From: a virus
Taxonomy: Duplodnaviria; Heunggongvirae; Uroviricota; Caudoviricetes
Virus record (IMG/VR): IMGVR_UViG_2778261572_000015
Direction: 5' to 3' (one strand)
DNA: 4,111 nucleotides
A program made the position numbers and the translations under genes. The notes under the pieces were generated by a model. The model had not been told where the DNA came from, did no database searches, and saw nothing but the letters and a program-made list of their open reading frames with translations. Below are positions 1 through 4,111 of this stretch, piece after piece. The number at the start of each line of letters is the position of its first letter. Position 1 is the stretch's first letter.

Positions 1-1011
1 TTATAACGTCACTCCGCCTTTTAGAGGATTCAGCGCGACGGCATTTTGCAGGTAGTCAGGCGCAAGGTGCGCATAGGCCATCGTCTGCTGAATGCTCGCA
101 TGTCCCAGAATCTGTTGCAGTGCGATTATATTGCCCCCATTCATCATGAAATGGCTTGCGAATGTATGCCGCAGGATGTGGGTTGCCTGATTGGGTGGTA
201 TATCTGGCTTCACTCTGCGTAAAATCCCGCAAAACTTCTCATAATCAACTTTGAATAATTTAGCGCTGGCCTCCTCTTTAACTTTTTTCTCCAGTTCCTC
301 AGAAATCGGCACGGTTCGCTTTTTACCGTTTTTGGTTTTCAGGAAGGTAACCCTGCAATTTGTAATCTGTGCTGGTTTTAGCGTGGCAACTTCCGTCCAT
401 CTTCCTCCAGTGCTCAGACATAAAAGTGCGACAAGTAAGTCATCACCATCCAAAACATTTAACAGTTTTTCGATTTCTGCTTTTTCCAGGAACGTCATTT
501 CAGGGTTGGCCTCCGCCAGTGGCGGCAGTCCGTGAATTGGGTGTTGCCCGGAAAATTCATCCAATTGAATTAATTTTGTGAACATGCCGGATAATCGGTA
601 CATGTCACGGTTTATCGTTGCGGCACTGATACCATCACGTAGTCGCATGGAACGATAATCCATCAAAGCTCTTTTGCTCATCCGGCTCACTGGTATATCA
701 CCTATGCCGCTGATGGTTTTGAGCAGATGATTAAACTCTTTTGTTCCATGCTCGTGGTTTTGCCCGTGATATTTCCACCAGATGTTCAGCAACTCACTCA
801 AAGTTCTGCGATCTGCTCGCTGACCTGCCCATTCTTTCTGGCTGGCGTAGGCGATTGTGTATCGCTCAAATGCTACAGCCTCAGCTTTTCTTTCAAATTT
901 CCTGCGGATGCGTTTTCCGTCGCGACCGCGAGGTCTAATGTCCACTTCATAGCGTCCATCATCGAGCTTCTTAATTGACATAAGAAAGCCCTCTGACGCT
1001 GTATTCACCAT
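1..1011 (-). CDS. int: Tyrosine-type site-specific integrase (P2 Int-like). Longest ORF is 336 aa from the ATG at 1011; an alternative in-frame ATG at 981 (MSIKKLDDG..., 326 aa) has a much better Shine-Dalgarno (GAGGG 8 nt upstream).
   Basis: Translation carries the tyrosine recombinase catalytic signature: conserved Arg in LSTGGRWTEV, then HILRHTFASHF and LGHASIQQTMAYAHL (H-x-x-R-H ... Y). Size about 330 aa and position next to a small repressor match P2-type integrases. The window starts exactly at its stop codon (TAA, complement of 1..3). Confidence 0.93.
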   Translation of the reverse strand: MVNTASEGFLMSIKKLDDGRYEVDIRPRGRDGKRIRRKFERKAEAVAFERYTIAYASQKEWAGQRADRRTLSELLNIWWKYHGQNHEHGTKEFNHLLKTISGIGDIPVSRMSKRALMDYRSMRLRDGISAATINRDMYRLSGMFTKLIQLDEFSGQHPIHGLPPLAEANPEMTFLEKAEIEKLLNVLDGDDLLVALLCLSTGGRWTEVATLKPAQITNCRVTFLKTKNGKKRTVPISEELEKKVKEEASAKLFKVDYEKFCGILRRVKPDIPPNQATHILRHTFASHFMMNGGNIIALQQILGHASIQQTMAYAHLAPDYLQNAVALNPLKGGVTL

Positions 1012-1344: not shown

Positions 1345-1373
1345 TTGACAGTAACCTATTGGTGACTTATATT
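1345..1373 (+). promoter_or_regulatory. Candidate early promoter (Pe-like), sigma70 type: -35 TTGACA (1345-1350), 17-bp spacer, -10 TATATT (1368-1373)
   Basis: Read directly from the sequence: exact consensus -35 hexamer, optimal 17-bp spacer, 4/6 match at -10. It is oriented toward the cox-like operon and begins at the nucleotide after the repressor start codon, so the repressor mRNA must originate further right and read across it (face-to-face arrangement). Confidence 0.55.
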
Positions 1374-1400
1374 CCCGTTAAAAGGTTGTGTATTGGTGAC
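1357..1400. repeat. Two perfect 10-bp direct repeats TATTGGTGAC (1357-1366 and 1391-1400), candidate repressor operator half-sites flanking the -10 element
   Basis: Exact 10/10 direct repeat, centre-to-centre 34 bp. One copy lies in the promoter spacer abutting the -10 hexamer, the other 18 bp downstream of it. P2-type repressors are known to bind direct (not inverted) repeats flanking the -10 of Pe. Confidence 0.45.
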
Positions 1401-1496
1401 CTTTTGAGTGTGTTAGCCAGTCCCTAGAAAGGACAGGTGCGACCTAGAAGGGACTGGATCTAATAAGGGTAACACGAAAGCAAAAAGGGCTAATCA

Positions 1497-1769
1497 ATGG
1501 AAGTCAATGACTATGTGATTCAGTACCCGATTGATGCGGTACATACGGTTAAGTTTGCAGAGTTACTTGGTAAGCCAGAAACGGCTGTAGTCAAGATGGT
1601 AAAAGAGAATAAGTTGCCAGTTATTGAGCTTCGTGATCCAAGTAAGCCGAACGCTCGTGTCGGTGAGAAGTGGGTTTTCATTCCAGAGTTTAATCGCGCT
1701 GTACGAGAGGCGTTTTATAACCGACCAGTTGAACAGCGTGATGCATGGCTTTTGTGGATGGGGTTGTGA
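1497..1769 (+). CDS. cox: Cox-like protein (excisionase / directionality factor and repressor of the lysogenic promoter), 90 aa
   Basis: First gene of the rightward operon, divergent from the repressor. Size (90 aa) and motifs KLPVIELRDP...GEKWVFIPEFN...RP.EQRDAWLLWMGL fit my recollection of P2 Cox. Good RBS (AAGGG, 7 nt upstream of ATG 1497). Confidence 0.68.
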   Translation: MEVNDYVIQYPIDAVHTVKFAELLGKPETAVVKMVKENKLPVIELRDPSKPNARVGEKWVFIPEFNRAVREAFYNRPVEQRDAWLLWMGL

Positions 1770-1942: not shown

Positions 1943-2439
1943 CAGTGATGACGCTCAATCTCGTTGAAAAACAGCCAGCAACTATGCGCCGGATAATTGG
2001 TAAGCATCTGGCCGTCCCTCGCTGGCAGGAGACATGCGATTATTATAATCAGATGATGGAACGTGAACGGCTAACGGTTTGCTTCCATGCGCAGTTAAAA
2101 CAGCGTCACGCAACGATGCGTTTTGAAGAAATGAACGACGTCGAACGTGAACGACTGGTATGTGCAATTGATGAATTGCGTGGGGCATTCTCAAAACGCC
2201 GTCAGGTTGGTGCAAGTGAGTATGCATATATTAGTTTTTTAACAGTCAGTCAGCGTCGCACTTTATTTATGCACGCACGACTGACAGAAAAAGAATTTAA
2301 CCAGCCATACTGGCGAATTAATGAAGAATCATGTTACTGGCGTGATGCTTTATTCCGTGCATTACGTGAATTATTCAGTCTGTTTGAGTATGCACCGACA
2401 ATTCTGACGTCGGTAAAACCAGAGCAATATCTGCATTAA
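1939..2439 (+). CDS. B: gpB-like early replication protein (P2 B is needed for lagging-strand synthesis / DnaB helicase recruitment), 166 aa
   Basis: Assigned by synteny and size only: P2 B is 166 aa as I recall it. The preferred start is ATG 1939 (GGAGG at 1926-1930, 8-nt spacing), which overlaps the upstream stop as ATGA (1939-1942). The ATG at 1933 offered by the ORF track has only a 2-nt spacer. Confidence 0.5.
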   Translation: MTVMTLNLVEKQPATMRRIIGKHLAVPRWQETCDYYNQMMERERLTVCFHAQLKQRHATMRFEEMNDVERERLVCAIDELRGAFSKRRQVGASEYAYISFLTVSQRRTLFMHARLTEKEFNQPYWRINEESCYWRDALFRALRELFSLFEYAPTILTSVKPEQYLH

Positions 2440-2502
2440 GTAATTAACCAGAGTTTTTAACGCACTTAATTGTGCGGGGCTTCTTTTTGCCTGGAGAAAG
2501 TC

Positions 2503-2727
2503 ATGCATACAGTTTCTGAAAATCAGTGCGGTATATACGCATTACTGCTGCAACAGGCCAGAACCGAAGCACAGGCCGACGCTGCGACGCGCTTTTCTTC
2601 TCATCTTGACGCCATGATTCGCCACATCACAAAGGCGGAGTTATCCCGCGTGGAGATAGTCGAGCTGCTCAGTCAGGAGTCGGAAAAATTTCACAATATC
2701 GGATTGTCTCGTGGGGAGGTGCTTTGA
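2503..2727 (+). CDS. Hypothetical small early protein (74 aa from ATG 2503; the ORF track's start at 2470 is a TTG)
   Basis: GGAG at 2493-2496, 6 nt upstream of ATG 2503. Its stop (TGA 2725-2727) overlaps the next start. No motif I recognise. Confidence 0.5.
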
Positions 2728-3029
2728 TGTCCTGTTCTCATTCAGTTGTATTACTGAATAACGCCTTAAAAATCGCCGTTATGGAAAATGGCGATTTGTC
2801 TCTTATTCAACTTGGTCTTGATAAAGAAAAGCGCGACATAACTGAATCTGTTATCGCGATTTATCAGAGCGAATTAAACCTCCTGTCTGATGTGATCAAT
2901 TTACTTGTGAAACGCGCTGTATTTCACAAGCAAATTTCCTCAGTGGATGAACTGACAAAATTAACGACAGAACTCGCCAGCTATTGCGCTGATGAATTTA
3001 AGAAACTGAACGACAAAAGGAACTGGTAA
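2727..3029 (+). CDS. Hypothetical protein, 100 aa, AT-rich coding sequence
   Basis: Start ATG 2727 overlaps the upstream stop (TGATG). GGGAGG at 2714-2719 gives a strong RBS. Its stop (TAA 3027-3029) overlaps the next start. Local GC is about 38-40 percent from my hand count, clearly lower than the flanking genes. Confidence 0.55.
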   Translation: MSCSHSVVLLNNALKIAVMENGDLSLIQLGLDKEKRDITESVIAIYQSELNLLSDVINLLVKRAVFHKQISSVDELTKLTTELASYCADEFKKLNDKRNW

Positions 3030-3253
3030 TGCCGGACAACGTAGATTTCATTCAGGAACAACAGGCTGAATTACTGGAGCGCCAGATTAACGCGGCAAGG
3101 GTAAAACATTGCGGTGCTTCTGCGCTGGTTTGCGAAGAGTGTGACGCGCCAATACCTGCTGCCCGTCGTGCGGCTTATCCGTCAGCCACGCGTTGTGTTT
3201 CCTGTCAGTCAGTCTTTGAAGCAAAAAACAAACATTACCGGAGAACGGCATGA
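3029..3253 (+). CDS. TraR/DksA-family C4 zinc-finger protein (74 aa)
   Basis: C-terminal CEECDAPIPAARRAAYPSATRCVSCQ...KHY carries two CxxC pairs with the PIP-x-x-RR spacing typical of TraR / lambda Orf73-type RNA polymerase secondary-channel binders. Start ATG 3029 overlaps the upstream stop (TAATG). Confidence 0.8.
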   Translation: MPDNVDFIQEQQAELLERQINAARVKHCGASALVCEECDAPIPAARRAAYPSATRCVSCQSVFEAKNKHYRRTA

Positions 3254-3525
3254 GTATTCGTATTGAAATTGGCGAACGTTATGTCGTTACCAGTGACAGC
3301 TTCCAGTTTATTCTCCACGAGAAAAAGAGAGCGGAAAGCGGTAAAAACGCCGGTCAGGAATGGCTGGCGGTGGTTGGTTATTACCCGAAATTAAGCCAGC
3401 TCGTTTCCGGCCTGATGCATCACGATATTCTGACCGGAAGCGCAAAGTCTTTTGCTGATTTAAACGCGCAGGTTGAGCAACTCAGCAAGCGTTGTTCAGA
3501 GGCTTTTGGCTCATATGGCCGTTAA
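3250..3525 (+). CDS. Hypothetical small early protein (91 aa)
   Basis: ATG 3250 overlaps the upstream stop as ATGA (3250-3253). GGAGA lies 5 nt upstream. Its stop (TAA 3523-3525) overlaps the start of the next ORF. No recognisable motif. Confidence 0.5.
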   Translation: MSIRIEIGERYVVTSDSFQFILHEKKRAESGKNAGQEWLAVVGYYPKLSQLVSGLMHHDILTGSAKSFADLNAQVEQLSKRCSEAFGSYGR

Positions 3526-4111
3526 AGCCTCCGGGCGTTTTGTCCCTCCGTCAGCATTTGCTGCAGGCACCGGTAAGGCGTTTACCGGTGCTTATGCATG
3601 GAACGCGCCACGCGAGGCTGTCGAGCGCGAAAGACCCCTTACACGTGACGAGATGCGTCAGGTGCAAGGTGTTTTATCCACGATTAACCGCCTGCCTTAC
3701 TTTTTGCGCTCGCTGTTTACTTCACGCTATGACTACATCCGGCGCAATAAAAGCCCGGTGCACGGGTTTTATTTCCTCACATCCACTTTTCAGCGTCGTT
3801 TATGGCCGCGCATTGAGCGTGTGAATCAGCGCCATGAAATGAACACCGACGCGTCGTTGCTGTTTCTGGCAGAGCGCGACCAGTATGCGCGCCTGCCGGG
3901 GATGAATGACAAGGAGCTGAAAAAGTTTGCCGCCCGAATCTCATCGCAGCTTTTCATGATGTATGAGGAACTCTGCGATGCCTGGGTGGATGCGCATGGC
4001 GAAAAAGAATCGCTGTTTACGGATGAGGCGCAGGCACATCTGTATGGTCATGTTGCTGGCGCTGCACTGAGAGATCCCCTCATAATTTCCCCAAAGCGTA
4101 ACCATGTGTGA
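3515..4111 (+). CDS. A: N-terminal portion of a gpA-like replication initiation protein; the frame closes with TGA at 4109-4111 after about 198 codons (212 in the ORF track, which starts at a TTG at 3473)
   Basis: Last gene of the coupled early operon, at the position of gene A in P2-type genomes. The ATG at 3515 (MAVKASGRFVPP...) is the likely start. P2-family A proteins are roughly 700 aa or more as I recall, so this product is either truncated or a different protein. Identity rests on synteny and recollection of the N-terminal sequence. Confidence 0.45.
   Translation: MAVKASGRFVPPSAFAAGTGKAFTGAYAWNAPREAVERERPLTRDEMRQVQGVLSTINRLPYFLRSLFTSRYDYIRRNKSPVHGFYFLTSTFQRRLWPRIERVNQRHEMNTDASLLFLAERDQYARLPGMNDKELKKFAARISSQLFMMYEELCDAWVDAHGEKESLFTDEAQAHLYGHVAGAALRDPLIISPKRNHV

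Follow-up and report, generated by a model that had tools for sequence, protein, structure and literature searches.

A probable Cox operator and a possible conserved stem-loop overlapping it between the convergent promoters of a WPhi-type P2-like phage

Genes and promoters of the early region

The analyzed stretch of 4,111 nucleotides (IMG/VR virus record IMGVR_UViG_2778261572_000015; hereafter, the window) comes from a P2-like phage, covers its int-C-cox-B early region and is 99.5% identical to coliphage WPhi. A megablast search with positions 1000-1800 returned the WPhi records AJ245959 and NC_005056 at 99.5% identity, together with many matching 'Peduovirus' prophages. The window differs from the WPhi record at position 1438, which is T instead of G and falls in the loop of the palindrome described below, and at one base at position 1379. 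The genes and regulatory features of the region are listed in Table 1. The spacer between the divergently oriented C and cox genes is 152 nt long. The product of cox is identical to the Cox proteins of many WPhi-type prophages, and P2-type early genes are located downstream of it. In phage fiAA91-ss (L005), which has the WPhi immunity, an IS21 element (istA/istB) occupies approximately positions 2094-3593 of the locus, about 100 bp beyond the break in the cox homology, and this element accounts for the stop of homology near window position 1592.

The depositors of AJ245959 annotated two promoters, which map in the window to positions 1343-1379 (Pe, plus strand) and 1461-1497 (Pc, minus strand). 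On the minus strand, the Pc elements include the -35 hexamer TTGATT (1497-1492) and the extended -10 element TGTTACCCT (1474-1466), with the transcription start near 1461; the extended -10 pattern TGnTAnnnT is invariant across 40 family sequences. According to the published WPhi distances, the Pe and Pc transcripts share an 82-nt overlap, and the Pc start is 60 nt away from the operator half-site O2. Taken together, the overlap and the O2 distance place the +1 position of Pe at approximately 1380 and that of Pc at approximately 1461. The C operator of WPhi is described in the literature as two 10-bp half-sites, 34 bp apart, with the printed sequence TATTGGTGAC; in the window, a repeat scan of the spacer region detected two copies of TATTGGTGAC with 34-bp spacing, which flank the -10 element of Pe.

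The block under study (positions 1417-1457) is located between the convergent promoters, at +38..+78 relative to Pe and +5..+45 relative to Pc, and is transcribed from both; the C gene is transcribed from Pc through this block. An earlier reading of the DNA, made from the sequence only, had placed the block in the cox leader, within the region of convergent-transcription control and 40-80 nt upstream of cox. The mapped promoters and transcript starts bear out the former placement, and the position of the cox ATG (1497) confirms the latter. The same reading had expected the leftward repressor promoter to be within the block. Instead, Pc lies immediately to the right, at 1461-1497, and the block is therefore not the Pc promoter itself.

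Table 1. Genes, promoters and repeats of the C-cox region. Coordinates refer to the window.
Feature	Coordinates	Strand	Basis or remarks
Tyrosine integrase ORF	1..1011	-	ORF map
C immunity repressor gene, 97 aa	1051..1344	-	ORF map, AJ245959 annotation, Pfam HTH_3
Pe early promoter	1345..1373	+	TTGACA-17-TATATT, consensus scan; start ~1380
C operator half-site O1, TATTGGTGAC	1357..1366	+	Repeat scan and literature
C operator half-site O2, TATTGGTGAC	1391..1400	+	Repeat scan and literature
Palindrome left arm, CCAGTCCCT	1417..1425		First 6 nt outside Cox box 1
Putative Cox box 1, 12-mer CCTAGAAAGGAC	1423..1434	+	Pc +28..+39, Pe +44..+55; 15-mer to 1437
Putative Cox box 2, 12-mer CCTAGAAGGGAC	1443..1454	+	Pc +8..+19, Pe +64..+75; 15-mer to 1457
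Palindrome right arm, AGGGACTGG	1449..1457		Overlaps the 3' part of box 2; ends 4 nt from the Pc start
Pc, C repressor promoter	1461..1497	-	AJ245959 feature, published distances, hexamers
cox gene, 90 aa	1497..1769	+	Pfam Phage_Cox, E = 9e-24

A probable Cox operator in the C-cox spacer

The repeat scan of the spacer region detected two families of direct repeats, the pair of TATTGGTGAC half-sites and a pair of 12-mers (Table 1). The 12-mers differ by one mismatch, are 20 bp apart from start to start, and can be extended to 15-mers with 87% identity; given the position of Pc, they occupy Pc +8..+39. The sequence-only reading had recognized them as nested direct repeats at 1424-1432 and 1444-1452, which are real, and had understated their length. 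No other 12-mer direct repeat in the window combines a spacing of 10-30 bp with a maximum of one mismatch. We estimated chance expectations using dinucleotide shuffles of the whole 4.1-kb window and of the 152-nt C-cox spacer, and a repeat of this kind appeared in 19% of the former and 0.6% of the latter. Substitutions within the WPhi class are found at 1436 and 1438, in the spacer between the repeats, and at a single position within a repeat, 1453.

The Cox site of WPhi has been described as "a direct repeat of 12 nucleotides in the Pe-Pc region" (Ahlgren-Berg et al. 2009, Virology 385:303, as cited in PMC5009727 and PMC7498355). Since the other repeat of the spacer is the known C operator, the 12-mer pair at 1423 and 1443 would by elimination be the published Cox repeat. 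The abstract of the original study reportedly speaks of an 'imperfect direct repeat of 12 nucleotides', and the removal of one repeat is said to have drastically reduced binding. Elimination and this description both suggest that 1423-1434 and 1443-1454 correspond to the published 12-nt repeat. The 12-mer sequences themselves are not printed in any paper retrieved by a full-text literature search. In phage type, spacer, 12-nt imperfect repeat and identical adjacent Cox, the element in the window repeats the WPhi Cox operator without difference, as far as the passages describing that operator go (PMC5009727, PMC7498355). The direct-repeat operator is thus a known element, already published for WPhi.

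A further copy of the box is present in the attP region of WPhi, which is located to the left of int, outside the window. In the WPhi record (L001), the sequence CCTATAAGGGACTGG at positions 345-359 matches Cox box 2 in 14 of 15 positions and lies between the Int arm-type repeats TGTGGACA (186-206 and 382-402). In the surrounding segment (321-364), two copies of the 9-bp direct repeat TAAGAAAAC precede CCTATAAGGGACTGG, and AAGGGCT occurs 10 bp after it. The calculated expectation for a 12-mer match with no more than one mismatch in ~273 bp is about 0.002. As Cox also serves as the excisionase, a site between the Int arm sites of attP is expected, and the attP copy supports the assignment of the 1423/1443 repeats as a putative Cox operator.

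Cox recognition helices and box classes

To compare the repeats with the DNA-binding specificity of Cox, we used a set of 164 loci encoding Cox relatives; a scan of genome contigs with Cox contributed two loci, and scans of IMG/VR contributed far more. The pattern ARGGAC-N13-15-ARGGAC was present upstream of cox in 32 of the 36 loci encoding a Cox protein with the recognition helix xKMVKEN, and was lacking in all 128 loci whose Cox has a different helix. The pattern-bearing loci represent five heteroimmune switch types, namely WPhi and four types with different C operators. Across all five immunity types, the conservation within this class is limited to the 3' half of the 12-mer, ARGGAC. The four exceptions among the xKMVKEN loci have the single-base variant GGGGC.

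The phages with the xEMxKAxK helix possess, in the same place and inside the conserved stem, two RRRCGNTTT boxes exactly 10 bp apart. These boxes were observed 30-50 nt upstream of the Pc -10 element in L002, L003, L038, L041, L042, L093 and other loci, for example as AAACGGTTT/GAGTGGTTT and GAACGTTTT/AAACGGTTT. We suggest that the RRRCGNTTT pairs may be the Cox boxes of another specificity class. As to the occurrence of the repeat in homologous switch regions, which the sequence-only reading had raised, the two parts of the block behave differently: relatives whose Cox carries another helix lack the direct repeat, as would be predicted for a site that determines specificity, and retain the outer stem of the palindrome.

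Altogether, the proposal of a Cox-binding array is borne out by the published operator, by the copy in attP and by the way in which the boxes co-vary with the recognition helix of Cox; we consider it highly probable that the block serves as the Cox operator in the lysis/lysogeny switch of a P2-like phage of the WPhi type. Some observations speak against this assignment: the 20-bp spacing of the boxes, where proteins of this kind usually bind sites one turn apart; the location of the boxes downstream of the -10 and -35 elements of Pc, from which the mode of repression is not obvious; and the presence of GGGGC in box 2 of four L020-variant loci despite an unchanged Cox.

A possible mode of Pc repression

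According to the passages on WPhi in PMC5009727 and PMC7498355, the WPhi Cox represses Pc, promotes excision, bends DNA strongly and binds cooperatively; it also protects long stretches of DNA from DNase and probably forms a filament like the P2 Cox. The two boxes in the window are separated by 20 bp, or about two helical turns, and would thus be exposed on roughly one face of the DNA. In the mechanism that we propose, Cox, a small winged-helix protein that oligomerizes, bends DNA and is made from the convergent promoter Pe, binds cooperatively to the two boxes with the ARGGAC core just downstream of the Pc start (+8..+19 and +28..+39). Cox nucleated on these boxes would overlap the downstream footprint of RNA polymerase, which reaches to about +20, and would bend or wrap Pc. 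Initiation or escape at Pc would be blocked in this way, the synthesis of C would stop, and the phage would be committed to the lytic pathway. Cox bound to the boxes may also impede the polymerases initiated at Pe, resulting in autoregulation, and the copy of the box in attP would let Cox serve as the excisionase. Cox would in this way repress Pc by a steric or roadblock mode.

A related known system is that of P2 itself, in which a homologous Phage_Cox protein does the same job (repression of Pc and excision) and binds cooperatively with bending or wrapping of DNA. P2 has at least six cox-boxes with the consensus TTAAA(G/C)NC(A/C), approximately 10-11 bp apart, which cover the -10 and -35 elements of Pc. 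In contrast, WPhi has a different box sequence and only two boxes, with 20-bp spacing, downstream of the Pc start. We found no match to the P2 consensus with up to one mismatch in 1345-1496, and the number of matches over the whole window was at the chance level; a P2-type cox-box array was therefore rejected. Apl of phage 186 and Xis of lambda are likewise small recombination directionality factors that act on head-to-tail direct repeats, and in 186 such repeats occur at att as well as between the promoters of the switch. Unlike the WPhi boxes, the sites of Apl and Xis follow one another at intervals of one helical turn and are present in larger numbers (seven in the case of Apl), and Apl and Cox are not closely related.

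Several other identities were considered for the block. IHF acts in the P2 switch, and the sequence-only reading had named an IHF-type site as one option; no match to the IHF consensus WATCAANNNNTTR within one mismatch was found in 1300-1560, and the sole match in the whole window under this threshold is outside the block, at 2072-2084. An intrinsic terminator was rejected as well, since the stem encloses a 23-nt loop and is not followed by a run of T/U on either strand, and no terminator-like site was detected in 1000-1800. Combined with the position of Pc to the right of the block, these results make it very improbable that the block is a site for IHF or another host factor, an intrinsic terminator, or Pc itself. 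Comparison with known RNA families likewise gave no candidate, as the best matches in Rfam 15 had E > 1 and reached 16-18 bits, compared with a gathering cutoff of 55. Degenerate versions of the box core are present at 1463-1469 (ATAAGGG) and 1483-1489 (AAAAGGG), over the Pc -10 element and the Shine-Dalgarno sequence of cox, respectively. These copies could be weak additional Cox sites or a coincidence, the motif ARAAGGG being of low information.

Structure and conservation of the palindrome

The arms CCAGTCCCT and AGGGACTGG form, as the sequence-only reading had it, perfect 9-bp reverse complements, with a loop of 23 nt. The first six bases of the left arm are outside box 1, and the arms are thus not simply a part of the direct repeat. 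The stem is predicted upon folding of both strands, with approximately -20.5 kcal/mol (z = -3.4) for the minus strand and -21.0 kcal/mol (z = -3.2) for the plus strand, and the mean z over 37 distinct relatives is -2.4 (plus) and -2.3 (minus). A GATC (Dam) site directly follows the right arm at 1457-1460 (Pc +2..+5); TGGATC is kept in most family members, with the exception of L039, L040, L081 and L162. In L089 (positions 401-983), as well as in L091, L094 and L101, an insert of ~500 bp separates the hairpin and Pc element from cox, and the L089-type insert includes two small opposed ORFs of 61 aa (plus strand) and 68 aa (minus strand).

The outer stem CCAGYC...GRCTGG is kept in heteroimmune relatives that have different inner sequences, and its distance to the TGnTAnnnT element of Pc is fixed across the relatives. 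For the analysis of individual pairs, we used a covariance model seeded on 12 sequences and aligned 47 loci, 37 of them distinct. In this alignment, the outer six pairs are paired in 89-100% of sequences, and changes on both sides of a pair are observed at pair 4 (G-C to A-U five times and to U-A once), pair 5 (C-G to U-A seven times) and pair 6 (C-G to U-A twice). The covariation score of 0.188, compared with 0.118 for shuffled alignments, was reached by none of 500 shuffles, in an alignment that is fitted to the model and contains few independent events. The proportion of paired cells was 81.5%, versus at most 52% in slid controls, and RNAalifold independently found the same 6-bp outer stem. 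In plain MAFFT alignments of the hairpin region, indels in the loop shift one arm out of register; RNAalifold predicted no pairs on the plain minus-strand MAFFT alignment, a result that represents an alignment artefact rather than counter-evidence.

The variation of the arms can be followed among phages that share a Cox recognition helix. With the identical helix TAVAEMVKANK, the arms are CCAGCC/GGCTGG in L042, CCAACC/GGTTGG in L041 and L044, and a single-step mixed intermediate in L054, and the other arm intermediate is carried by L038, which has the near-identical helix TAVVEMVKANK. Since the arms covary among phages with the same Cox helix, Cox specificity does not account for their covariation. 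Covariation between the types is likewise seen in the inner stems (TCTAAAC/GTTTAGA, AGAAAC/GTTTCT and CCAAAAC/GTTTTGG). Pairs 7-9 are restricted to the WPhi class, and the excess of C.A at pairs 8-9 derives from one lineage. Over the outer six pairs, the G.U and A.C intermediates number four and three, respectively, a ratio that does not decide which strand is the transcribed one. Judging from these sequence comparisons, the conservation suggests that the palindrome is best read as a second, superimposed feature of the block, a conserved stem-loop.

Possible roles of the stem-loop in the transcripts

We tentatively propose that the DNA of the Cox operator may double as a conserved RNA stem-loop. 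In the C mRNA, this stem-loop would occupy the very 5' end, and in the early transcript it would lie about 10 nt ahead of the Pc -10 element. On the Pc transcript, the stem would begin at +5 (5'-AGAU-CCAGUCCCU...AGGGACUGG) and could protect the C mRNA from 5'-end-dependent decay. Based on the published Pc start, the beginning of the stem at 1457 (Pc +5) falls within the ~0-4 nt from the 5' end that characterize stabilizing hairpins. The 5'-terminal stem-loops of E. coli mRNAs of the ompA type stabilize the message, and four unpaired 5' nucleotides are borderline for such protection in Belasco-type experiments. The predicted C mRNA resembles the ompA type in having a hairpin within a few nucleotides of the 5' end, and differs from it in the borderline number of unpaired nucleotides and in that the encoding DNA also serves as an operator for a protein.

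On the Pe transcript, the hairpin would be completed about 10 nt before the Pc -10 element, where it could cause polymerase to pause over Pc and strengthen transcriptional interference. Pausing reportedly enhances the interference between pR and pRE of lambda. The likeness to this system consists in the face-to-face arrangement of the promoters, the interference of a strong promoter with a weak one, and a WPhi hairpin that could pause polymerase; the difference is that the WPhi pause is hypothetical, with no consensus pause sequence identified. The Pe-transcript hairpin could also modulate the expression of cox, and the two complementary hairpins could mediate contacts between sense and antisense transcripts. 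The sequence-only reading had suggested a leader hairpin that affects cox translation. The stem itself is conserved with compensatory changes, and an effect on cox translation is not indicated, given the distance of 28 nt from the stem to the downstream Shine-Dalgarno sequence of cox (~1485-1489); an assignment of the hairpin to the 5' end of the C mRNA would be equally good, or better.

Additional hairpins were observed near the promoters of this and other phages. The Pe transcript starts directly with a second hairpin (AAAAGGT at 1380-1386 and ACCTTTT at 1399-1405 in the window), with most of O2 in the loop and the last two bases of O2 in the right arm. Other immunity types have Pe hairpins in the same place with unrelated sequences (CCGAAAAGGT..AACCTTTTCGG, CAAGGTTC..GAACCTTG and CCTCAATGGTTTT..AAAACCATTGAGG). 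P2 (L087, positions 1433-1458) has the arms TTTAGTGC and GCACTAAA of an 8-bp inverted repeat around a loop of 10 nt; the distance from its end to the annotated Pc -10 element is 5 nt, which places the repeat at approximately the 5' terminus of the C mRNA of this phage. A published experiment with WPhi is also of interest here: when the DNA flanking Pe, O1 and O2 was swapped for vector, expression of a Pe-cat fusion rose almost 100-fold, for which the authors' account of the experiment gives no explanation (PMC1904263). The vector replacement in PMC1904263 removes positions 1401-1497, that is, the block together with Pc.

One explanation of the palindrome would be a chance by-product that has no function of its own, with only the direct repeats being important. 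At the scale of the whole window, a 9-bp palindrome alone is unremarkable, since 45% of the shuffled windows contain a perfect inverted repeat of 9 bp with a loop of 3-40 nt, and the window itself has three further ones, all within genes. Among the perfect inverted repeats of the coding regions are CTTGTGAAA/TTTCACAAG (2904-2930, 9-nt loop) and GCACCGGTAA/TTACCGGTGC (3567-3591, 5-nt loop). Within the spacer, however, such a repeat appears in only 1.6% of shuffles, and the compensatory changes extend across heteroimmune relatives, so that a chance origin appears quite unlikely to us. A role at the DNA level only would follow if the left arm CCAGTCCCT were an inverted third copy of the box part AGGGACTGG, giving three Cox sites for which RNA structure is irrelevant. 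The cox-boxes of P2 are indeed found in both orientations within their targets, GGGACTGG follows the box in attP too, and the change of pair 5 from T-A to C-G coincides with the change of the Cox helix class. Nevertheless, the outer arms CCAGCC/GGCTGG are kept in phages that differ in both the Cox helix and the inner boxes, covariation of the arms is also seen where the Cox helices are identical, and the published description of the operator, in the passages cited above, mentions a direct repeat only; we regard an inverted third box as unlikely.

The remaining reading, a conserved RNA stem-loop that is added to the operator rather than excluding it, is in our view a real possibility that falls somewhat short of probable. 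It agrees with the prediction of the stem on both strands and the negative mean z of the relatives, with the retention of the outer pairs through compensatory changes and the concordant RNAalifold result, and with the covariation of the arms among phages sharing a Cox helix as well as of the inner stems. The fixed distance between the stem and the Pc -10 element, the inverted repeat near the Pc start of P2 and the conserved hairpin with which the Pe transcript likewise begins point in the same direction, and the rise in Pe-cat expression upon removal of the flanking DNA is compatible with it. On the other side, the alignment was itself fitted to this structure, and the changes go back to a small number of independent events (roughly 4-6); the wobble intermediates favor neither strand, and the innermost three pairs are specific to the WPhi class. 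Moreover, the right arm belongs to a Cox box and is retained in attP too, a location in which a role at the RNA level would not be expected, and the four unpaired nucleotides are at the limit for protection by a 5' hairpin. That the conserved stem-loop is functional seems to us to have rather less than an even chance.

Conclusions

The main element of the block, the Cox operator, needs no new explanation, and its recovery shows that a reading of the sequence only can spot a real regulatory site. The pairing of boxes and helices (ARGGAC with xKMVKEN, and RRRCGNTTT with xEMxKAxK) provides a simple predictor of the Cox specificity classes of prophages. The conservation of the stem is a modest lead that may be new. 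In the passages on the WPhi operator in the literature found, a stem at the start of the repressor mRNA is unmentioned, and this feature may be undescribed. If the stem and the hairpin at the Pe start are functional, the 'two promoters, two repressors' switch of the P2 family would gain a post-transcriptional or pausing component, an undescribed RNA layer over the protein operators that would act through mRNA stabilization, hairpin pausing, or sense/antisense pairing. Such a layer would also explain the ~100-fold cis effect on Pe, as reported in the account of that experiment (PMC1904263), and would make this effect testable.
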